This document shows positions 4,486 through 19,595 of a DNA stretch of 19,595 nt, piece after piece. Origin of the DNA: Alkalispirochaeta sp. (GTDB lineage: Bacteria > Spirochaetota > Spirochaetia > DSM-27196 > Alkalispirochaetaceae); contig CBDESZ010000028.1 in assembly GCA_965242725.1 (NCBI GenBank), positions 1-19,595 of the forward strand, read 5' to 3'. The notes beneath the pieces are model-generated. The model was not told the origin of the DNA. It was given only the letters and a program-made list of their open reading frames with translations, and did no database searches. The position numbers and the translations under genes are program-made. Numbering within the stretch: the stretch's first letter is position 1; every line of letters begins with the position of its first letter.

Positions 4486-4558
4486 TAGTGGCGAAGGGAC
4501 TTGAACCCCTGACCGAGCGGATATGAGCCGCTTGCTCTACCGACTGAGCTACGCCACC
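4486..4558 (-). tRNA. tRNA with CAT anticodon, most likely elongator tRNA-Met
   Basis: GGTGGCGTAGCTCAGTCGGTAGAGCAAGCGGCTCATATCCGCTCGGTCAGGGGTTCAAGTCCCTTCGCCACTA folds as a cloverleaf with anticodon arm AGCGG-CTCATAT-CCGCT and T-loop TTCAAGT. It lacks the initiator C1:A72 mismatch and three consecutive G:C pairs, and has G4:C69/G5:C68 rather than the C4:G69/C5:G68 of E. coli Ile2. CCA is not encoded. Confidence 0.93.
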
Positions 4559-8182: not shown

Positions 8183-8202
8183 GGAATGGAAGGGTGGATC
8201 AT

Positions 8203-9471
8203 ATGGATACGGGACGTGCAATTCGAGACCATCTGGAGACGGCATACACCGCTCCCATACGGGATCCCCTGTGGGGACACATGTACCTCTCACCGGCGAT
8301 GCTGCAGCTCGTGAATACACCCGAGTTTCAGCAACTCAGCCGAATCAAACAGCTTGGCCCCACCTTTCTCGTCTATCCGGGGGCGACCCACACCCGCCTC
8401 AACCACAGCCTTGGAGTCTTTCATCTCGCCCGCAGGATCATATCCCGCATCGTCTATCATCCCCAGTCGCCCCGTCTCTCCGTCGAGGGTGTGAAATCCT
8501 ATCTCGCCGCCGCACTGCTTCACGACGTCGGCCATTTCCCCTACACCCACAGCTTCAAGTCCCTCCCCCTGGCGGAACATGAACATCTCACCGGGCGGAT
8601 CGTCCAGACGGGGAAACTGAAGAAGCATCTCCGGGACGATCTGCAGGTGGATCCCCGCTACGTCGCCGCCATCGTTGACGAGACGATGGACGATGGAGGC
8701 GACGATGAGCTTCGACTCTATCGCAACCTGCTTTCGGGCAGTCTTGACCCGGACAAACTGGACTATCTCAACAGGGACGCCTATTTCTGCGGCGTGCCCT
8801 ATGGCTTCCAGGATATCGATTTCGCCATAAGCAGAATACGACCAAACGGTTATGAGGGAATCGGGCTGGAGGAGACGGGGGTTTCCGCGGTGGAAAACAT
8901 CCTCTTCTCGAAATTTCTCATGTACCGTGCCGTCTACTGGCACAGAACGGTGCGCGTCGCCACCGCAATGATTAAAAAGGCGGTTCATCTCGGGCTGGAG
9001 GAGGAGGTCATACGTCCCGACGACCTCTATGGTCTGGACGACGAACTTTTCATTGCGCGCTTCAGCGACCACCCCTTTGAACCTTTTCAGTTGATTGGTG
9101 AAGTCGGACAGCGCCGGCTGTTGAAGCCGGTTGCGACAATCTCCTTCGACCAGACCAACCCCGCCCACCATCAGTTGAGCGATATCTCAGCGCGACGGGC
9201 GGTGGAAGGCAGACTGGCCCGTCAGCTTGGCGTCCCGACCTATCGGGTAATCGTCGATATTCCCGATCCGATTTCATTTGAAGCCTATTTCCCGATATTC
9301 GAAGAGGAAAAACAGTACGAATTTTCCCAGAAGAGTGTCTTCTCCTCCGACGTGGTGCGGAGCTTCACCGAGACGTTGCGAAAAATCAGGCTCATGGTGC
9401 CCCGGGACACGGTCACCGACGACTTTGACGGTACCGCCCTTCTGGAGGAGTCCTTTCATGAACTGGGCTGA
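8203..9471 (+). CDS. HD-domain phosphohydrolase (COG1078 / SAMHD1-like dNTP triphosphohydrolase family)
   Basis: IRDPLWG, FQQLSRIKQLG, VYPGATHTRLNHSLG, ALLHDVGHFPYTH, LDPDKLDYLNRD and MYRAVYWH. The start is ATG 8203 or GTG 8194. Confidence 0.93.
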   Translation: MDTGRAIRDHLETAYTAPIRDPLWGHMYLSPAMLQLVNTPEFQQLSRIKQLGPTFLVYPGATHTRLNHSLGVFHLARRIISRIVYHPQSPRLSVEGVKSYLAAALLHDVGHFPYTHSFKSLPLAEHEHLTGRIVQTGKLKKHLRDDLQVDPRYVAAIVDETMDDGGDDELRLYRNLLSGSLDPDKLDYLNRDAYFCGVPYGFQDIDFAISRIRPNGYEGIGLEETGVSAVENILFSKFLMYRAVYWHRTVRVATAMIKKAVHLGLEEEVIRPDDLYGLDDELFIARFSDHPFEPFQLIGEVGQRRLLKPVATISFDQTNPAHHQLSDISARRAVEGRLARQLGVPTYRVIVDIPDPISFEAYFPIFEEEKQYEFSQKSVFSSDVVRSFTETLRKIRLMVPRDTVTDDFDGTALLEESFHELG

Positions 9472-10225
9472 GTTGATACAGACCCATCCTCCCCGCAGCG
9501 TCATGGGCTTCCTCAAACGGACGGGGCGCGGCATCAATCGGTACGGCATGATAGGTGACGGCGATCGGGTACTGCTCTCGGTATCCGGAGGCAAGGACTC
9601 CCTTGCAATGGCGCTGGCGTTGCGCATGCGTCTGCGCTTTGTACCCATTCACTACCATTTGGAAGCGGTTATGATCGACTGGCGGGAACATCCCCATACG
9701 CCGGCCTCCCTGGAGCGGATCCGGGCGTTTTTCAGACAGATCGAAATACCCCTCACAATCATTCCGGCCGACATGAAACCCGATTCCTTTCGCGGACGCT
9801 TTGACTGCTATCGATGCGGTCGCAATCGGCGGCGTATCCTCTTTGAGTACGTCAAGGATTGGGAAGGCCGCCCCCTCATTGCGACGGGACACCACCTGGA
9901 CGACGTCGTTCAGACGACGCTTATGAACATGGTTCTCTATGGGACCTTCGCCACGATGAATCCGGTACAGCCGTTTTTCAACGACTCCCTCCGGGTCATC
10001 CGCCCGCTCTGCGAAGTACGGGAAGATACGATCAGAACGGTGACGGAACGGTTTGAACTCCCCGTCTCTTCCATCGACTGTCCCTTCCGAACGGCCAACA
10101 TCCGCTCACGGGTCAATCCGATCGTCAGGGAGCTGGCGACGCTCCATCCCCAGGCGCGGGAACACATATTCCGCTCCCTTCACAATATTGATACCGAGTA
10201 TCTGCCGGCGAGTTGTGATCTCTAA
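9458..10225 (+). CDS. ttcA: TtcA-family tRNA 2-thiocytidine biosynthesis protein (PP-loop ATPase)
   Basis: SGGKDS PP-loop, CYRC, ATGHHLDD, IRPL and CP motif. Start at ATG 9458 after SD GGAGGAG, overlapping the end of the HD gene. Confidence 0.85.
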   Translation: MNWAELIQTHPPRSVMGFLKRTGRGINRYGMIGDGDRVLLSVSGGKDSLAMALALRMRLRFVPIHYHLEAVMIDWREHPHTPASLERIRAFFRQIEIPLTIIPADMKPDSFRGRFDCYRCGRNRRRILFEYVKDWEGRPLIATGHHLDDVVQTTLMNMVLYGTFATMNPVQPFFNDSLRVIRPLCEVREDTIRTVTERFELPVSSIDCPFRTANIRSRVNPIVRELATLHPQAREHIFRSLHNIDTEYLPASCDL

Positions 10226-10241
10226 AGGGATACTGTACACT
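10213..10241 (+). promoter_or_regulatory. Internal sigma70 promoter with a very short leader
   Basis: TTGTGA (10213-10218), 17 nt, TACACT (10236-10241), 9 nt, ATG 10251. No SD. Confidence 0.55.
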
Positions 10242-10250
10242 CGGAATTCA

Positions 10251-10709
10251 ATGAAGTCGAACCGACTAATGCAGGAGAGAATTCGTCGCGTCCACGTCCT
10301 GTTCCAGGAACTGGGATATGAACTGACGGAAAGTGAAACGACTGAAGAGAGCTACAGCGCCGGCTTTGTCGGTTCCGACGGCTTTCAGGCGGGCTTTTTC
10401 ATCGACGCAGATTCTAAATTCCTGGAGCTTGCCTTCACATTTACGTTCACCGCGGAGATGGCCAACTTCGTCCGGGAGCGCATTGAGGAAGGTATGCGCT
10501 CGCTGTACGAATTCGGATGTTATTTTTCTCTCCAGACGGACGAGCAGGATATCGTCCTCACCATTTTCAGTAAGATATACTTTGCAGGATTGAACTATTT
10601 TGCCCTGAAGGAAACGATTCGTGACTTTCGGGACGCGACAGAAGCGATACAGGATCTCTTTGATATACCGTTTGAGATCGAGAAGGGGGACGACGATGGA
10701 GATTCATAA
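10251..10709 (+). CDS. Hypothetical acidic protein, possibly YbjN / type III secretion chaperone-like fold
   Basis: 152 aa from ATG 10251, acidic, with a helix-strands-helix-strands-helix pattern. The fold call is inference only. Confidence 0.75.
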   Translation: MKSNRLMQERIRRVHVLFQELGYELTESETTEESYSAGFVGSDGFQAGFFIDADSKFLELAFTFTFTAEMANFVRERIEEGMRSLYEFGCYFSLQTDEQDIVLTIFSKIYFAGLNYFALKETIRDFRDATEAIQDLFDIPFEIEKGDDDGDS

Positions 10710-11379
10710 CGTCATGGAAGAGCTGGTGGCGTCCGTTGTGGAAGAAATCTCCCGGGACGACGCCGCGAGTGCCAAACCTCGGTACAGCGCCACCGAAGAG
10801 AGCCGGATGGACGCAATCTGCTATATACTCAACCGTACCACCCCCCGCTACGTCAGCTCCGGTCGCGGATTTGCCCATATTACAAATGAACTGCAGAACG
10901 ATCAGCAGCTGGGCGTCGATTTAATGCGCCTCGCTCACGAAGCGCTGCACCGGGTGAGCGCCGTTCGCCGCGATTTTTACAACGGCGGAAGCGCACCCCA
11001 CTCCGCGGGGCCGTGCTACAATTTTGGAACGATCAAGGGACGAATCCTCGACGGCGCGAGGTTTTCTCCGGTAAGCGGCGTGGCCGTGACGCTCATGCGC
11101 GACGGAACGGCTGTGGAAATGTTTGATACCCGCTGGTCAAATCCCTTTGAGATCCCCCCGCAGGCGCCGGGTACCTTCAATTTCTGGCCGGCACCCATCG
11201 CGGCATCCGACAACGCGGCGACGAAGGAGTTTCCCTTTGAACTGCGCGTGGAAGACCCGCGGTACGAACCGCTCAGCCACTTTTTCTCCGTGACTGCCCA
11301 CCGAGGCGAGCAGGAGACACGCACGATATCACTGGATCGCGATATCGTACTTCCCGACCTCTACCTCTTTACACGGTAG
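10696..11379 (+). CDS. ComFB-family protein with a C-terminal carboxypeptidase-regulatory/transthyretin-like beta domain
   Basis: MEIHNVMEELV and RMDAICYILNRTTPRYVSS match the ComFB signature (N.ME..V...D...ALN.lpP.Y). The tail GTIKGRILDG...PVSGVAVTL matches the beta-sandwich start. SD AAGGGGG. Confidence 0.85.
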   Translation: MEIHNVMEELVASVVEEISRDDAASAKPRYSATEESRMDAICYILNRTTPRYVSSGRGFAHITNELQNDQQLGVDLMRLAHEALHRVSAVRRDFYNGGSAPHSAGPCYNFGTIKGRILDGARFSPVSGVAVTLMRDGTAVEMFDTRWSNPFEIPPQAPGTFNFWPAPIAASDNAATKEFPFELRVEDPRYEPLSHFFSVTAHRGEQETRTISLDRDIVLPDLYLFTR

Positions 11380-11400: not shown

Positions 11401-11691
11401 TCACTCATAGGACTCCGAGTGGGTCTGAACCTCCTGCACCCTTCCGGGGACGATGGTTTCAATGAACTCCAGGATCCGCTGAATCACCCGCTCGCCGTAT
11501 TGGCGGTTATTGCTGACCACGGCGACGCCGAGCTGACTGAAGGAGAGACTTTCCTCCAGATCCACCTCCGCCACGCTGACGCGGAATTTTCGATTCACCC
11601 TGTCCCGAACGCTGTGAACAATTCTCCGCTTGTCCTTGATGGAGGTCAGATCGGGAATTTCAATTATCACCAGGAGCATGGAGACGATCAT
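11401..11691 (-). CDS. DUF503 (YlxP-like) family protein
   Basis: SIKDKRRIVHSVRDRVNRKFRVSVAEVD...LGVAVVSN is the DUF503 signature. Confidence 0.9.
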   Translation of the reverse strand: MIVSMLLVIIEIPDLTSIKDKRRIVHSVRDRVNRKFRVSVAEVDLEESLSFSQLGVAVVSNNRQYGERVIQRILEFIETIVPGRVQEVQTHSESYE

Positions 11692-11697
11692 GGGAGA

Positions 11698-12825
11698 TCA
11701 CTCTTCGTCGAATAGACTGGATATATCGGCGACGGAGAGGGCGCTCCCGCTTTCGTTCTCCTGTGATGCACCTTCACGGTCCTTCATGGGCAGGAACACG
11801 CTGTTGTACTTCTCCGCTAGCCGGTAAATGTCGTCGTCCCGATAGCGGTCGGGAATGACAACTTCAAGTGAATAGGCGCCTTCACTCATGCCCCGACGCA
11901 TGACGTGTATGGGATCGGTGACGGTCAGGGCAAAGTGGGGGCTGTATATCACCATAAAGACGATTACAAGCGCGAGAATGACCGCAAAGTACTGCAGGTT
12001 ACGTCGTGCCTCTTCCTGTTGCACAGGACGAAGATCGAGGAACAGCCTCAGATTGTCCCTTTCGGCATAGGTGTAATCCTGGGAGGTGAAATAGCGATCC
12101 AGGTATCCCTGATCGTACCGGCTGTAGAGAACGTTCCCTCCCGCCTCGACGGAGATGATTTCCCGACGACTCTGGGCGTACGCTTTCAGGGACGCAATGC
12201 GATCGGGAGCGGCCAGCTCCTCGGCAAGGATATAATCAAGCGATTCCGAAGCGGTTTCCCGGTAGGCAAGTTCAAACGTTGGTACCGTCACAAACATACC
12301 CGCCACTGACAGGATAATGAGGGTAAAGACAATCGTCGTCACCGCGCTGGCGGTAATGAAGGCGACGTGGCGCTGGGCCATCTGGGAGTCGGTGTTCTTT
12401 ATCTTTTTGAAGATCTTCAGGACGCGAAGCAGTCTCAGCACCCGGGTAATCCTGATCGCCTTGACCACCTTGAGGACGTTGAGCATACCCCCGACACCAC
12501 CGACGGGAACGCCGCCGGCGAGAAGGGCGAGAAGGCGGGGTCCGCTGTTCAGCATCACCAGGGGGATGCTGGCGAGAAAATCAATCCATCCCCGTTCGTT
12601 CCAGAAATATCGGGAAAACTGACCGCGCCGGGACGCGTCGTAGCTGCGGACGGCAAACTCAATTGTAAAAAAGAGATCGAATGCAAATCCGGTGATCGTC
12701 AGTATCGTCCGCAGATCGCCGTTCCAGGACAGGAGTATGGCGAGATCCTCCAGGAACGTCTGAACGAGGACGAGGACGATTGCGACAATCACGATACCTT
12801 CCAGGAATGAACGAGTTTTACCCAT
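11698..12825 (-). CDS. Ion_trans-like voltage-sensor domain membrane protein with an extracytoplasmic domain and a C-terminal HAMP-like region
   Basis: S2 FDLFFTIEFAVR, S3 WIDFLASIP, S4 KVVKAIRITRVLRLLRVLKIFKKIK, two more TM helices, then TDPIHVMRRGM...DDIYRLAEKYN. Confidence 0.85.
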   Translation of the reverse strand: MGKTRSFLEGIVIVAIVLVLVQTFLEDLAILLSWNGDLRTILTITGFAFDLFFTIEFAVRSYDASRRGQFSRYFWNERGWIDFLASIPLVMLNSGPRLLALLAGGVPVGGVGGMLNVLKVVKAIRITRVLRLLRVLKIFKKIKNTDSQMAQRHVAFITASAVTTIVFTLIILSVAGMFVTVPTFELAYRETASESLDYILAEELAAPDRIASLKAYAQSRREIISVEAGGNVLYSRYDQGYLDRYFTSQDYTYAERDNLRLFLDLRPVQQEEARRNLQYFAVILALVIVFMVIYSPHFALTVTDPIHVMRRGMSEGAYSLEVVIPDRYRDDDIYRLAEKYNSVFLPMKDREGASQENESGSALSVADISSLFDEE

Positions 12826-12831
12826 AATTAC

Positions 12832-13755
12832 CTACCAGACATTTTCCGCAGCGATCTTGTACAGCTCATCGAGCATTTTCACGTCAAATCCGTAAAATTT
12901 GTAGTTCCGGCGTGCCGTAGAAAGCCAGCTCTTGTCGGGGCTGTCCGCGCCCCGGTCCACCTTGAGATTGGCTTGATAGTTCCGCCCCCGGGCGGCCAGT
13001 ATCGCCGCGAGACGGGCCGTCGCTTCTATATAGGGATTCTCGTTGAAGGAAACGCTTCCGTGAACGACGCTCTTCAATACCCCTTCAGGGACCGGTTTCA
13101 GTTCCCGCTGCAGCCGTTCAAGAATCTTTTCCGCAAACTGGTTTTGCACCATGCCGCTCGTCCGGTCCGGGTGGGCATTGCCGCCGCCGAGAAAGAGTAC
13201 AGCCGGCTTCAGAAGGAGGTTGAGATTCACGAAATTCACGACCTCGTCCTTTCCCATACGGAGGCGTTGGACTTTGGTCAATTCAAAATGGATATACGTC
13301 TTGCGGTAGAATACTTCGTCGAGGTAGCGATCGACCATGCCGGAAACGACGGCAGTATAGGGACCGGTAAAGGCGCGACGGGCTTCCGGTTTTTCAAGAA
13401 GACGCTCGATGAAGGCGTAAACCAGTTTTCCGACCTTCTGGACGTCCACACCCTGGTCCTCGATGAGATGGAAAAACGTGTAATTCAGTTTTTCCGTGGT
13501 AAGTCTTTGAATATCCGGGTAGAGACGGGTGTTGATCACGTTGTACAACTGATTCACCAGGAGCGCAAAGATCTGGTTCCAGTTTTTTCCCGGAAAGAAC
13601 TGGCGTGAACTGAGCGTCGGGGCCAGTTGCGCGGCGTTACCGTGCAGAAATTGAATGATCTGTTCTTCCTGCTGGAGGAGGGAGAAGCCATTGAGTGCGG
13701 GATTCTGCAGGAGTCGGCTGATAAAGGCCTGTGCTTTCTGGCTTTCGGTGTTCAT
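12832..13755 (-). CDS. Conserved-looking hypothetical helical protein (307 aa)
   Basis: Long clean ORF lying 6 nt upstream of the next gene. ATG at 13755 follows a promoter. Confidence 0.85.
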   Translation of the reverse strand: MNTESQKAQAFISRLLQNPALNGFSLLQQEEQIIQFLHGNAAQLAPTLSSRQFFPGKNWNQIFALLVNQLYNVINTRLYPDIQRLTTEKLNYTFFHLIEDQGVDVQKVGKLVYAFIERLLEKPEARRAFTGPYTAVVSGMVDRYLDEVFYRKTYIHFELTKVQRLRMGKDEVVNFVNLNLLLKPAVLFLGGGNAHPDRTSGMVQNQFAEKILERLQRELKPVPEGVLKSVVHGSVSFNENPYIEATARLAAILAARGRNYQANLKVDRGADSPDKSWLSTARRNYKFYGFDVKMLDELYKIAAENVW

Positions 13756-13770
13756 AATACTGTGGCGCAA

Positions 13771-13799
13771 AGCATACTATACCAGGGGGAAGGGCTCAA
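13771..13799 (-). promoter_or_regulatory. Sigma70 promoter for the hypothetical / VSD-HAMP / DUF503 operon
   Basis: TTGAGC (13799-13794), 17 nt, TATGCT (13776-13771), 15 nt, ATG. No SD. Confidence 0.55.
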
Positions 13800-13806
13800 G
13801 TCTGAC

Positions 13807-16800
13807 ATGGGGAGAGATCATCGGCACCTGTTCCATTTGATCATCGCGGTGATCTTCATCATCCCATCCGTCCCGGCTGCCGGGGAGAGCTGGGAACCCG
13901 AACGCTCGCTCATTGAGGAGGAGGCACCGCCCTACCTGCTTGACCTCTCTCTGGGCGGGAACGATGCGGAGCTTTTTCTCTCAGGCCTCTGGAACGCCTC
14001 GTCTGAGGTGGCATTGGGCATGGCCCTGCACCCGCCCCTTCCGGAGACGGGGCGTCGCGTCACCTTCGGCAGGAGATATCCCGGATTCGAAACAAACTTC
14101 TTCGCCCAGACCGTGGATCTCACCCTCTCACTGTGGCTCTATGAGCGGTACTTTTTTGAGGCGACCTTTGCCGACGATTCACGGCTCAACTCCATCGCCG
14201 CCGGTTACTACGCCGCGGAAGATGAGCTGGTCAGGGAGTTTGTCGTCGGGAACGTACCTCTTGCGGTCTCCCGGTATCCCTACCAGTACACGGGGAACCG
14301 TGCCAACCGTGCAGGTGCGACGCCAAATCCCGGTTCCCTGCTGCGCCTTGAAACGGGGTCCACTTTTCATGAGTTTCTCATTCAACTGGAAAATACAATG
14401 GAACGTCGCCTGCGCATTTCCGGAGGGCGTATCGTTGAAGAGGCGGTGATCCCGCCGGAGCAGTACCTCCGCGGCCTCTCCTTCGTACTCCCCGACGGCG
14501 GTGTTTCCCGGCTGACCGTCTTTCTCCAGGACCCGGACGGCCAGGTGCTCGGCCGTCTTCCCGGAGACGGCTCTCTGCGTCGCTTCCGCGTTCTCGACGA
14601 CGGCGCAGGGGAGTACGTCGCCGATCTTGACGCCGGGACGGTCCGCCTGGGCGACACAGTTCCGGGAAACCGTACCGTCGCCGTCTATTACGAGACGGCC
14701 TCGGGAGCGGTCGGTCAGGCAGGAAACGGCGCGGGAGGTATCGTCGCCCTCGATCCCCTCACGGCGGCGCCGACCGATCAGACGACGGATTTTGCGTTCG
14801 GAACGGACCCGCTTTACAACCTGACCGAAACGGCCGCCGACTATGAGGGAAACGACTTCCGCCTCCAGCTGACCGACGGCCGGAATGCCCTCATCATACG
14901 CTCCCCGGGACTCTGGTCTCCCTTTGAGGCGGCGGACCTGTACCGCCTCCCGGCGGGAGCGGATGAGACGGGACGGTACCGCCTCGTTCGGCGCGATACG
15001 CTTACGCCATATGAGAGCGACATTCAATTGAGTCGCCGGCCCGAGACGTCCATCCTCAGGGCCCGTCGTCCCGGGACGTCCCCCCGGGACCCGGACTACC
15101 GCTATCCCTGGGCGGCGGAAACACCCCGGGATCTCCATTCCCGCATGTACGGCCCCAGAAGTGCCGGATTATCGCGATTCAGCAACAGCGGAATCTACGT
15201 GGAATACGGAACGGCGGTGGGAACGATACAGCTCGACGGAGACGTTGTTCCGGGTTCCGTCGCGGTCCGGTCGGGCGGCGTCGCCGTCGCCGGGGCAGAC
15301 GTAGACTACGACGGATCGACCGTTTCCCTGCCACCCTCCGCGGGGGCGGGGAATGTGGACATCGTCTATCGCGTATATGGTGATGACGGCACGGGAGGCG
15401 ATATCATTGTCATCAACGGAAACCGATGGACACTGCGACCGGATCTCACCCTCTCCGCCGCCGCCGGAATCAGGTGGAACGTCACCGATGACGGCTACTC
15501 CACGGAAATGAATCAACACCCCGGGCAGATAACCCTCTCATCGGGAGTATCGTGGAGGGGCGACAATCTTCAGGTCGAGGCGTCCGGCGCGGCCCAGTTG
15601 TCACAAAGCGACACGACCGGATTCTTTCGCCTCTTCGGGGGCACATCCAGGGACTCGGTGCTCGCCCCGTCGGCGGAGACGGTGTTCCCGCCGGGGGCGG
15701 CGGAAATCCTTTCGACCCGGGACGTCGACTATGGAGGCCCGGACCTTGCAGCATCGGCCTTTGTCTATCCCCGCTACCGCGATTACTGGTCGACGGACCT
15801 CCTCGGAAACGTTGCGCTCGGGGAATATACCTCTTCAGTCGAGGCCGATACCGACCGCGCCAACGGACGCATCGGCCCCTACATCGCCCGCAGCAGCGAT
15901 ACCGGCTATCGCGGCACCGTCGCCGTTCTGGAGTGGGACGCCCTTCCCTCGGATCGGTGGACGGGAATACACATAAACCGGAACGCTCCGGAGCAGGATC
16001 TCCGGGACGCCCGATCCATTCTCGTCACCTGGCGGTACATTCCCGATACTCCCGGCGCCCCCACGCCGGAAATTCTCCTGGAGATGGGAGCCCTCGGTGA
16101 GGACCTTGACGGCGACGGAAGGCTCGACCGGGGCAGAAGCGCGGTGGACCCGTTGATAGAGTACAACGGTGCCGACGGCGTGCGGCGGGCGGGTCAGGAC
16201 GCGCCGATACTGCAGCGCAGTCACAGCGAGGATACGAACGGCAACAACGTTCTCGATACCGAGACCCCGTCGGCAGTCTTCTCCTATGTGCTTCAAGCCT
16301 ATCAGCCCGCCACCACCGAGGGGTGGCAGAGTGTGGAAATCTCCCTGGACGCGCTTGACCATACGGGCGCGCCCTCCGGTGCGGTAGCCCGCAGCCGCCT
16401 CGCCGCCGTCCGCGCGGCCCGCATCGTCGCCGCCGCGCCGACGGGTCAAAGCATACCGTCCGGACGCCTCCTCGTCGGCGAGATACGGGTACGCCGCACG
16501 GGAGCCGTCACCGTCACCGAGGCGGGAGACAATGACTCGGGCAGCGCCGGCATCGTTCCTGACCCGCTCTCCGGTACGGAAGCCCTTCGCAACCGCTTTC
16601 ATCCGGTTGGCGATCGCTTCGTCCCCGACGGCGAGGATCAGCGCGTCGCGGCACTCTCGTGGAGGGGAGGCGCCGCTTCGGTCGCCGCGGAAGTGTCCAC
16701 CCCTGACCTCTCGATAAACGAATACGCCACGGCGACAACCTACCTGTTTCTCGACGCCCCGGTCTCCGAGGGCGGACCGGAAAAGGTCGCCCTCCGTATC

Positions 16801-18887
16801 GCCCCCTATCGGAACGCTCCCGGAGAGAAATCGATCATTGCCGAAATACCTGCGACGACGCTCCTGGACCGGTGGCATGAATTACCCTGAATCTTCAGGA
16901 CCGGGAGCTCCGCATAGACGGTGACCGCATTTCCGGTGCCACCGTTACCGTCGGGAGCCGGGCGGACCGGGAGCTCATGCGGGTCGCATCGCTGTCGGTG
17001 GAAGAGATCGGCGGTACCACGACGGGCACCCTCTACTTTGATGAGCTTCACGCCGCCGATGCACGAAGCGGCGTCTCCGGCGCCGGAAGGATCTATGCCG
17101 CGTGGTCCCGGACGGTCACGGAGGGGACCTTTGCGGGGACACGACTCTACGTCTCACAGTCCGTCGCCGCCCAGGGAGCCGATTTCCGCCTCGCCGGGAG
17201 TGCCGCCGGCGGAACCACCGGCGGCGGTGACGCATCCGACGACGTATCAAACGGCGACGACGGTGGCGACTACAGCAGCGCCGGTGCCGGCACAGGCACG
17301 TCCGGCACCGCGGATTTCAGTTCCGGCGCCGGCGGCCCCTCCCTTCCGACGGCGTCCGGCGTCGTAGCGACGGATACGAGGGCGGGTCTCACGGCCGGAC
17401 CGTTTCACCTCGAGGGACGTGTCGTTACCCGGGGGAGGGATGACGAAGGTTCCGCCGGATACGGACACGAAGTAGCGATCCCCCTCCTGCCGGGAGGGGC
17501 CGTCACGCTCCGGGAGAGCTTCTTCCGGGACTACCGCTACGGCAGCACCGGCTATTCCCGGCAGGTGGGCGTACAATCGGCGAGGGAGGGCTGGGGCACC
17601 TACCAGGTCTCGGCGTCCCATAATGTGTCGGAACGGGAAACACAGCAGGCGTGGCGCGTGGACCTCGCCCCGCCGTCGATTGCAGCCCTCCGCCTTCAAC
17701 TCCGCAACGACATTTCCCTCTTCGCACCGGACCTGACCGTCTCCTCCCTCCCCTACGGCTCGAGCTGGCGGGAGAGTACTGACTACCTCCTCCCCGTCCC
17801 GGAACGACTCAGCGCCCAGGAACGGCGCCTTGAAAGCGGCATATCCCTGGACATTGCCGCCCTGGAACTCACCGGAGACGGCGGCTGGACAAATCGCAGC
17901 TCCCTCTCGGGCGAGCACGAAAGCCGCCTCGCCCTCGGAATCTCCCTCCCCCTCTCATTCGAGCCCGCCGGCCGCCGGCCGTGGAAACTGACGCCGTCAT
18001 ACAGCCGTTCCTATCTTTTTATAGAAGAACTTCGTTCCGCCGGGTTTGCAGACGATGGTGCCGCGTGGGCCAACCGCATCGCAGGGGAACCGGGGATGGT
18101 TACGGCGCTGCCCATAGCGGAACTCTTTCAGACGCTCCCGTCGCCCGAATTTGACGCCCCCCTGCCCGGGGGAGAGCGCAGAAGCTATGACGCCGAGGGG
18201 TCACTTGAGTTTTCCCGGGTCTTTACGTCCCGCATCAGCGATCTCTGGATCCCCTCCGCCGCCCGTCTCGACGTGGAACGCTCACTTGCCTGGGAGGGGG
18301 ACAGTATAGAGGACTCACGGACGTGGCGAATGGAGGCGACGGCGACGGCGGTCAATCTCTTCGGCCGGGAAGGTGCCTACCCGCGTGCACTTCTGTATGC
18401 AAGCGATGAATTCCGGAACAGCGTGACCGCCAAAATCACTGAACGACCTCGCAGCGACGGGAAACCGGCGTGGTCGGTCGGCGCATCCCAGGGTACCTCC
18501 ATGTACGGAGCAGGCGAGAACCGACTTGACTCCCTTCTCGGGGTTACCGCGTCCCGTGACAGCTTCTGGACCGTTGAGTATTACGGCGAAGTGACCTACC
18601 GGTGGATCGATCGCAGGTATCCACCGTTGAACGTGCTTGAGCGGCTGGAAGAGACGCCCTATTACCGCCATGAGGAACGGACGGCCTTCACCGTTACCAC
18701 GGAAGATGGAACGTTCAAGTTGGGCGAGGTAACGGCGGGACACCGGACGGAACTGATCATCACCAGACAGGGGTCAATCTCCCTCTTCGGCGACCTGGGG
18801 TGGACGATGGACGCCGGAGAGTATGAAAATGGGGCGCTCCACCTCATTGGACTGCGTATCGGAGTGGAAGGGCGATTGAGCTATTGA
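13807..18887 (+). CDS. Very large outer-membrane beta-barrel protein (~1693 aa) with SprA/Sov-like motifs; one-base frameshift near 16880
   Basis: Signal peptide from ATG 13807 (MGRDHRHLFHLIIAVIFIIPSVPAA), many amphipathic beta strands, and a C-terminal beta-signal LRIGVEGRLSY. Adding one A at 16880-16881 joins ORFs 13627..16890 and 16977..18887 as WHEITLNLQDRELRIDG...ELMRVASL. Confidence 0.8.
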
Positions 18888-18920
18888 CGTTCATCCCAGG
18901 AAAATCAATGCCGATGAATA

Positions 18921-18965
18921 TCGATAAGGAGTCCCCTACGGGCTATTATTAATAGTAACAAGGAG
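18921..18965 (+). promoter_or_regulatory. Putative sigma70 promoter and RBS of the last gene
   Basis: TCGATA (18921-18926), 17 nt, TATTAT (18944-18949) in an AT-rich patch. SD AAGGAG at 18960-18965 lies 6 nt before the ATG. Confidence 0.5.
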
Positions 18966-18971
18966 CCTGTG

Positions 18972-19595
18972 ATGCACAGAAATTGGGTTCTCGTTCACGC
19001 GATGATTATTTCCGCCCTCTTCATAACGGGGGGAGGCGGCGATTTATACGGACAGGACGGAGATAGCCCGCCGGAATCACCGATCACATTCCGCCTCGGG
19101 GTGACCTTCGGCGTAAACTCCTTCGTCGACGAGGAGAGCGGCGACATCGATACCTACCAACTCCTTTCCCTCCGGCCCGATATTGCCTACGGGAAGGTGG
19201 GAGTCGGACTTGACCTGCCGATAAACTACCGTTTCACCGCAGGTGACGGCAGCGACTTTGAAGTACGCCGGGAAGACTGGATACCCGACTCGGACAGAAC
19301 CTTCGCCGAGGTATATCTCCCCAAATTCCGCTACGTGCGGTACGGAGAAGACGGCGACCCGCTGTATCTCCGTTTCGGAGGGCTTGCCTCCACGACCCTC
19401 GGCAACGGGTTCATTATGAACGGCTACTCCAATGAGCTCTACGCGCCTCAGCGCCGCGTCTTCGGAGGAGTTGTAGAGATTGACGGTGACGCATTCGGCG
19501 TGCCCTACGTCGGTCTGGAAACAATGACCGCCAACATGGCCACGTGGGATGTGATGGGAGGACGGTTGTATCTCCGGCCCCTCGTCTCCACCGCG
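18972..19595 (+). CDS. Secreted / probable outer-membrane beta-barrel protein, 5' part; runs off the window edge
   Basis: Not in the ORF track. Open frame from ATG 18972 to the end: MHRNWVLVHAMIISALFITGG...FRLGVTFGVNSF...YQLLSLRPDIAYGKVGVGLDLPINYRF...PKFRYVRYGEDGDPLYLRFGGLASTTLGNGFIMNGYSN. It has a signal peptide and alternating-pattern strands. Confidence 0.85.
   Translation, partial: MHRNWVLVHAMIISALFITGGGGDLYGQDGDSPPESPITFRLGVTFGVNSFVDEESGDIDTYQLLSLRPDIAYGKVGVGLDLPINYRFTAGDGSDFEVRREDWIPDSDRTFAEVYLPKFRYVRYGEDGDPLYLRFGGLASTTLGNGFIMNGYSNELYAPQRRVFGGVVEIDGDAFGVPYVGLETMTANMATWDVMGGRLYLRPLVSTA

Follow-up and report, generated by a model that had tools for sequence, protein, structure and literature searches.

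The window analyzed here, a stretch of 19,595 nucleotides from Alkalispirochaeta sp. (assembly GCA_965242725.1, contig CBDESZ010000028.1), carries a gene for a 375-residue membrane protein in which a pore-less voltage-sensor domain (VSD) is followed by two further transmembrane (TM) helices and a HAMP domain, and which lies directly downstream of a gene for a soluble protein predicted to contain a metal-free HD-GYP-like domain. This architecture, its conservation, the pairing of the two genes, the loss of metal motifs in the partner, and one natural fusion were observed; they suggest a two-gene split receptor, a reading whose full mechanism we regard as nearly an even call. According to this reading, the membrane subunit would be a HAMP-type signaling protein with the VSD as input, and it is probably dimeric because it is HAMP-type, dimerization via HAMP being established for these domains generally. 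A change in membrane potential would move S4, and this movement would pass through the conserved S4-S5 linker to TM5/TM6 and on to the HAMP domain; an invariant helix (residues 341 to 350) would present the HAMP state to the separately encoded partner, which would occupy the place held by a fused HD-GYP domain in a natural fusion relative and serve as a nucleotide-binding switch or adaptor. The pair would thus serve as a coincidence detector, with membrane potential and cyclic di-GMP (c-di-GMP) as its two inputs, the most likely end process being motility behavior.

A protein search returned 601 homologues at an E value of ≤0.001 among 8,000 candidates scored. The 120 matches listed (356 to 459 residues, 49 to 91% identical, the named ones all from Spirochaetota) supplied the conservation set of 121 members; a second set comprises 101 diverse members. 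When 1.84 billion representatives were searched with a profile, 373 matched, of which 150 were listed. All 13 residues named in the sequence-only reading sit at the positions it gave. D50, F53, E56, D82, seven S4 basic residues, S147, H153, and N341, L345, P346, K348, and R350 are invariant in 121/121 members. S4 had been described as nine basic residues at every third position. Seven of them (K119 to K137) form the conserved set and are all retained in 79 of the 101 diverse members, whereas K140 and K143 fall outside it; since position 140 is basic in only 79/121 members and Gly in 54/101, these two are assigned to the S4 exit and linker. Among 16,790 six-frame stop-free stretches of at least 100 residues from the same genome, nine Lys/Arg residues at every third position occur in five, and seven such basics with hydrophobic spacers occur in this open reading frame only. 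The S1-S4 domain thus has the S4 charges, counter-charges, and Phe plug that mark six-TM voltage-gated channels, and, judged by these residues, the membrane subunit probably senses membrane potential.

S1-S4 and TM5 are shared with the six-TM voltage-gated channels (Nav/Cav/Kv; Pfam Ion_trans), and databases call the family "ion transporter"; here, however, there is no pore helix or selectivity filter, and TM5 and TM6 enclose a soluble α/β domain, followed by HAMP. Specifically, the Ion_trans match covers only residues 7 to 174 (profile positions 3 to 150 of 241), and in the stretch from TM5 to TM6 a filter motif of the TxGYG or Nav type was found in 0/121 and 0/101 members. A G[YF]G string does occur in this region in 21/121 members; among the rows listed it is preceded by D-Y or D-F, not Thr, and lies in a predicted β strand. 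The modeled loop has the order helix-helix-strand-strand-helix-strand-strand with no re-entrant pore helix, and the absence of a pore proposed earlier is thereby borne out. Elsewhere in the genome, separate from the VSD locus, there is a pore-only potassium channel gene (TTGYG; G000:C4:243909-244601). A pore-less VSD could itself be the conduit for a proton or gating-pore current that HAMP and partner gate from the inner side, as Hv1 is likewise pore-less and conducts through S1-S4. Hv1 features a mid-S1 Asp and RxWRxxR in S4, but S1 here has no mid-membrane Asp (V19 in 121/121, Q/H22, T23), its acidic residues lying only at the outer end (positions 26 and 27), and the seven S4 charges follow one another without a break, the F53 plug is present, and RxWRxxR is not; a conducting VSD is therefore very unlikely.

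The periplasmic domain is the least conserved part of the membrane subunit. Its top Foldseek match, to WalK, is weak (E = 0.11), no Pfam Cache match was found in the 121 or 101 members, and an hhalign comparison with dCache was not significant (0.5%). Natural members of 282 to 298 residues (L087, L088, L089, and L102) have lost this domain and kept the partner gene. The core would accordingly consist of the VSD, two TM helices, HAMP, and the partner, which weakens the earlier view of the domain as a periplasmic sensor; the short forms are good minimal constructs.

The HAMP assignment proved real, the domain being divergent. Directly after a TM helix there are two amphipathic helices and a connector with the P, G, DE, and N signature positions, and profile-profile comparison with 43 HAMP domains of the same genome gave probabilities of 66 to 80% (E values of 1.5e-5 to 5e-5), while six other protein regions, in two alignments each, all stayed below 1%. 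In the Pfam scan the query was below the cut-off, with weak matches in 20/121 members (best E value, 3e-4). A TM5-periplasm-TM6-HAMP layout is common to TM-PAS/Cache-TM-HAMP sensors (WalK type, methyl-accepting chemotaxis proteins [MCPs], and class III cyclases), which differ in that here a VSD precedes it and no kinase, MCP, or cyclase domain follows in cis. The motif after HAMP, retained in diverse members (N341 in 99/101, K348 in 98/101), is a putative docking site for the partner. Further toward the C terminus, tail residues 363 to 372 (11701-11740, minus strand) show the pattern L-x3-D-(I/V/L)-x2-(L)-(F/L), conserved in 81/121 members and not present in Brachyspira or solo paralogues; it may resemble CheY-binding peptides of FliM and CheZ.

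Counts for close loci refer to the best 80 of 295 genomic loci, and those for distant loci to 20 (L083 to L102). In 74 of the 80, the protein stops 16 to 50 residues after the post-HAMP motif, so the short C-terminal end is its native state, and the idea that orthologues continue into a catalytic domain, leaving this protein a truncated remnant, is refuted. The remaining six comprise three with tails of 119 to 186 residues and three without the motif, two of the latter at a contig end; three long tails examined in another set are acidic and of low complexity. Voltage-sensor-gated enzymes are known from eukaryotes in the form of the voltage-sensing phosphatase (Ci-VSP/TPTE). The present protein differs in being bacterial and in that S4 is separated from the output by two extra TM helices, a periplasmic domain, and HAMP; that output is HD-GYP-like and usually encoded by a separate gene. 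No PTEN-like phosphatase domain was found after S4 in Pfam scans of the query and of the 121 and 101 members.

The partner gene is upstream in 78 of the 80 close loci, compared with 73 for the DUF503 gene and 62 for the convergent ComFB gene. In the 20 distant loci the pair is kept while other neighbors vary; linkage to DUF503 is confined to close relatives and was seen in L093 alone among L083 to L102. A partner profile matched 97 of 301 sampled genomes of the phylum, and in 92 of these (best partner match per genome) the partner gene is immediately followed by the VSD gene in the same orientation. This count uses family matches from 112 genomes, excluding the weak ones, those of the distant clade B, and 104 that were not listed; the other five genomes include one with unlinked genes, two with the genes on separate small contigs, and two without a listed family match. 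The pair is present in Borrelia (B. anserina WP_025419829/WP_025419830) and Brachyspira and was not found in the sampled genomes of families f3 (0/28), f17 (0/45), and f7 (0/17). The two genes are very likely coupled functionally in some way, and signaling in trans, as anticipated from the sequence, gains a candidate partner in the adjacent upstream product. Extra or unlinked partner copies without an adjacent VSD gene occur at L175-L178 (G044, G025) and in G010 (up to five matches). A solo paralogue only, without the pair, was seen in 17/112 genomes; three such paralogues (L097, L098, and L101) have neither partner nor tail, and the next gene encodes a polysaccharide deacetylase in all three. 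A distinct clade (L163, L164, L165, L166, L167, and L169; 352 to 499 residues) has a VSD-TM-periplasm-TM layout that ends in a helical/acidic tail, without any output domain recognized by Pfam; three of its members have a related gene of 400 to 420 codons directly upstream, perhaps for a different partner.

For partner residues 102 to 307, the best structural match is DvhD's HD-GYP domain, and the model makes an HD-GYP-like fold likely. The HD and HH metal ligands and the GYP loop were found in 0/75 partners; because all metal ligands are lost, the protein should not be a phosphodiesterase. Its likeness to HD-GYP phosphodiesterases (PmGH, PA4781, Bd1817, and V-cGAP3) is one of predicted fold in this region, the partner differing in a helical N-terminal domain of 100 additional residues and in an insert specific to its family. 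It would act as a switch or adaptor that, in free-living lineages, may still bind a cyclic dinucleotide, most likely c-di-GMP; nucleotide binding as such is somewhat less likely than not. An R-x-Y motif (R/K258, Y/F260) is conserved in the close set only. The genome has GGDEF (24 matches) as well as diadenylate cyclase genes, both also present in the Borrelia and Brachyspira-type genomes tested, so c-di-GMP and c-di-AMP are both possible ligands. With the same pair and voltage input, the partner could instead be a nucleotide-free protein adaptor, a pseudo-enzyme scaffold relaying the HAMP signal, for example, to the chemotaxis/motor system. The residues kept in all lineages (S276, W277, D291, E297, and W307) belong to the family-specific C-terminal insert and helix, outside the putative nucleotide pocket, a site that is eroded in Borrelia and Brachyspira; moreover, in Borrelia the pair and flaA-cheA-cheW-cheX-cheY are arranged tail to tail at a distance of one gene, and the pair was not found in 17/17 genomes of one family, two members of which were tested and lack flagellin. 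However, R-x-Y is retained in 61 to 62 of 63 close partners, a chemotaxis neighborhood was seen in 1/20 distant loci and on the opposite strand, and the correlation with motility depends on one lineage. We consider this adaptor unlikely, though worth serious attention.

DvhD (Desulfovibrio) and LapD likewise are membrane receptors that combine a periplasmic domain with a c-di-GMP enzyme domain devoid of catalytic activity. The present system departs from them in several ways: the dead domain is encoded as a protein of its own, a VSD has been added, some lineages do without the periplasmic domain, and a protease/adhesin operon was not seen. Following their logic, c-di-GMP would bind the dead HD-GYP partner and HAMP would signal outward to the periplasmic domain, with the VSD only tuning the response. 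The top structural match itself, DvhD, is a dead HD-GYP receptor signaling inside-out to a periplasmic dCache domain, and Borrelia and Brachyspira retain periplasmic domain and partner while S4 decays. Yet the presumed recipient of the signal is the domain deleted in the four paired short forms and least conserved elsewhere, and no LapG-type protease was found among the selected neighboring open reading frames scanned, which makes inside-out signaling quite unlikely.

The split-receptor reading has a counterpart in the natural fusion L168:2589-4316 (minus strand; G175:C716), 576 residues long, in which VSD-TM-periplasm-TM-HAMP is followed by an HD-GYP domain whose HD, HH, GYP, and terminal Asp motifs are all intact and whose Pfam HD_5 match exceeds the cut-off. 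It emerged from weaker family matches, after and independently of the fold match. Query residues 41 to 341 align to it with 23% identity (E = 2e-11), and the HD-GYP domain sits exactly where the query ends; the HAMP domain of L168 scores as a canonical one (93%), and no shift in codon composition is seen at the junction. Judged by this architecture, L168 shows that a predicted VSD-HAMP module can drive an HD-GYP domain, descent of the pair from L168 not being implied, and it is a candidate voltage-gated c-di-GMP phosphodiesterase. A whole spirochaete class of membrane-potential receptors, VSD-HAMP proteins driving c-di-GMP signaling, once fused and mostly split with a dead HD-GYP receptor, is a rather doubtful extension. 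Genome G175 also carries the pair, as would suit a catalytically empty regulator heterodimerizing with enzyme-fused VSD paralogues. The sequence-only reading had offered cyclase paralogues for this role, but the sole fused relative is an HD-GYP protein from 1/301 genomes, and the genome of the query (92% complete) has a single family copy and no other full VSD; this explanation retains hardly any credibility.

Several observations weigh against the split receptor as proposed. Partner and HD-GYP proteins show no significant sequence similarity. L168 is one gene in one fragmented genome; no second fusion was found in 301 genomes, in eight genomes of its family, or in two metagenome scans, and a 32-row tree without the Brachyspira rows places it on long branches outside the paired family, together with two relatives that have no output domain. 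ComFB is described in a preprint (bioRxiv 10.1101/2024.11.10.622515) as a c-di-NMP receptor family; its gene here lends weak support to a nucleotide link because it is on the opposite strand and linked in close relatives only. Most flagellated genomes in the sample are without the pair, which bears on motility. Finally, S4 has four or fewer charges in 14/101 diverse members, and the sensor is eroded in host-associated lineages, with 4/7 charges left in Borrelia and 1/7 in Brachyspira. Such erosion would suit a truncated remnant, or a membrane protein with a structural role, in which the VSD fold has ceased to sense anything, but S4 and counter-charges are invariant at 50% overall identity, and the end point is the same in 74/80 loci; we hold this view to be highly improbable.

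Motility as the end process is a weak guess, based on the Borrelia pair lying tail to tail next to the flaA-che operon and on the titles of Goulbourne and Greenberg from 1981 and 1983, which reportedly announce membrane-potential involvement in Spirochaeta aurantia chemotaxis. In Borrelia, BB0674 (712204-713250) and BB0675 (713244-714107) match the L083 pair by order, strand, length, and the upstream neighbor gph. Transposon insertions are listed for both genes (PMC3485029), which are thus dispensable in culture. A BB0675 clone lacking only lp5 was recovered from 0/15 mouse tissues, compared with 11/15 and 15/15 for other clones of the same set; this is a single clone, the week-2 and week-4 rows are identical copies, and polar effects are possible (PMC3485029). 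In a larval-tick screen, ratios by gene were 0.0013 and 0.085 for BB0675 and 0.0012 and 1.58 for BB0674; the group below 0.1 (102 genes) includes false positives according to its authors, and many neighboring rows vary as much (PMC6516651). Values given for these genes in oxidant screens are mostly near neutral (PMC5333916). Overall, this suggests an in vivo role of the Borrelia pair and has no bearing on voltage.

The features of the locus are compiled below. On the plus strand, a row at 8194-11379, found in most close relatives, encodes an HD-domain protein, a TtcA-like tRNA thiolase, a small gene product, and ComFB and converges on the VSD operon. Divergent from the partner, three large genes (about 1087, 636, and over 209 codons; 13627-19595, plus strand) gave no Pfam or NCBIfam match, the first being linked in 73/80 loci. 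A tRNA-Met gene lies at 4486-4558 (minus strand). At a distant locus, a class III nucleotide cyclase-PilZ fusion (L100:5056-6003) is encoded 1.3 kb from the VSD-partner pair on the opposite strand.

Features of the VSD-partner locus, with positions in the 19,595-nucleotide window
Feature	Position	Strand	Description
Partner gene	12832..13755	-	307 aa from ATG; soluble, all-helical; stop 6 bp before VSD start
HD-GYP-like region of partner	12835-13452	-	~residues 102-307, without metal ligands (predicted)
Membrane subunit gene	11698..12825	-	375 aa: VSD(S1-S4)-TM5-periplasmic domain-TM6-HAMP-short acidic tail
VSD	12403..12822	-	Residues 2-141; D50/F53/E56 in S2, D82 in S3
S4 with seven conserved basics, K119-K137	12415..12471	-	Invariant in 121/121
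Helix 148-178	12292..12384	-	Conserved S4-S5 linker exit (S147, H153 invariant) to TM5
Periplasmic α/β domain	12016..12285	-	~Residues 181-270; PAS/Cache-like by topology only; missing from natural short forms
TM6	11938..11997	-	Residues 277-296
Divergent HAMP domain	11794..11940	-	Residues 296-344
Post-HAMP helix motif	11776..11805	-	N341-x3-L345-P346-x-K348-x-R350; most conserved cytoplasmic element
DUF503 gene	11401..11691	-	6 bp downstream of VSD gene, same strand
ComFB-domain gene	10621..11379	+	Convergent neighbor; context, outside core pair

VSD, HAMP receptor, and dead HD-GYP receptor are each known, and their combination is not described in the literature searched: full-text searches, covering few subscription papers, for bacterial VSD-HAMP proteins, a spirochete voltage sensor with cyclase, bb0674, bb0675, and pore-less bacterial sensors gave no description. 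Two proteins and one natural fusion can now be named as directly testable candidates, and two unannotated Borrelia genes, bb0674 and bb0675, gain a putative identity. According to one paper, B. burgdorferi has PlzA as its sole known c-di-GMP effector (PMC8323883); if the proposal is true, the product of bb0675 would be a second member of the Borrelia c-di-GMP pathway. As a tool, a voltage-gated phosphodiesterase could serve to read or steer bacterial membrane potential. The pair may let spirochaetes couple membrane voltage to second-messenger signaling; if so, it would be the first transducer from voltage to second messenger in bacteria, as well as a candidate answer to the old question of how membrane potential enters spirochaete chemotaxis, as an element behind its membrane-potential dependence.
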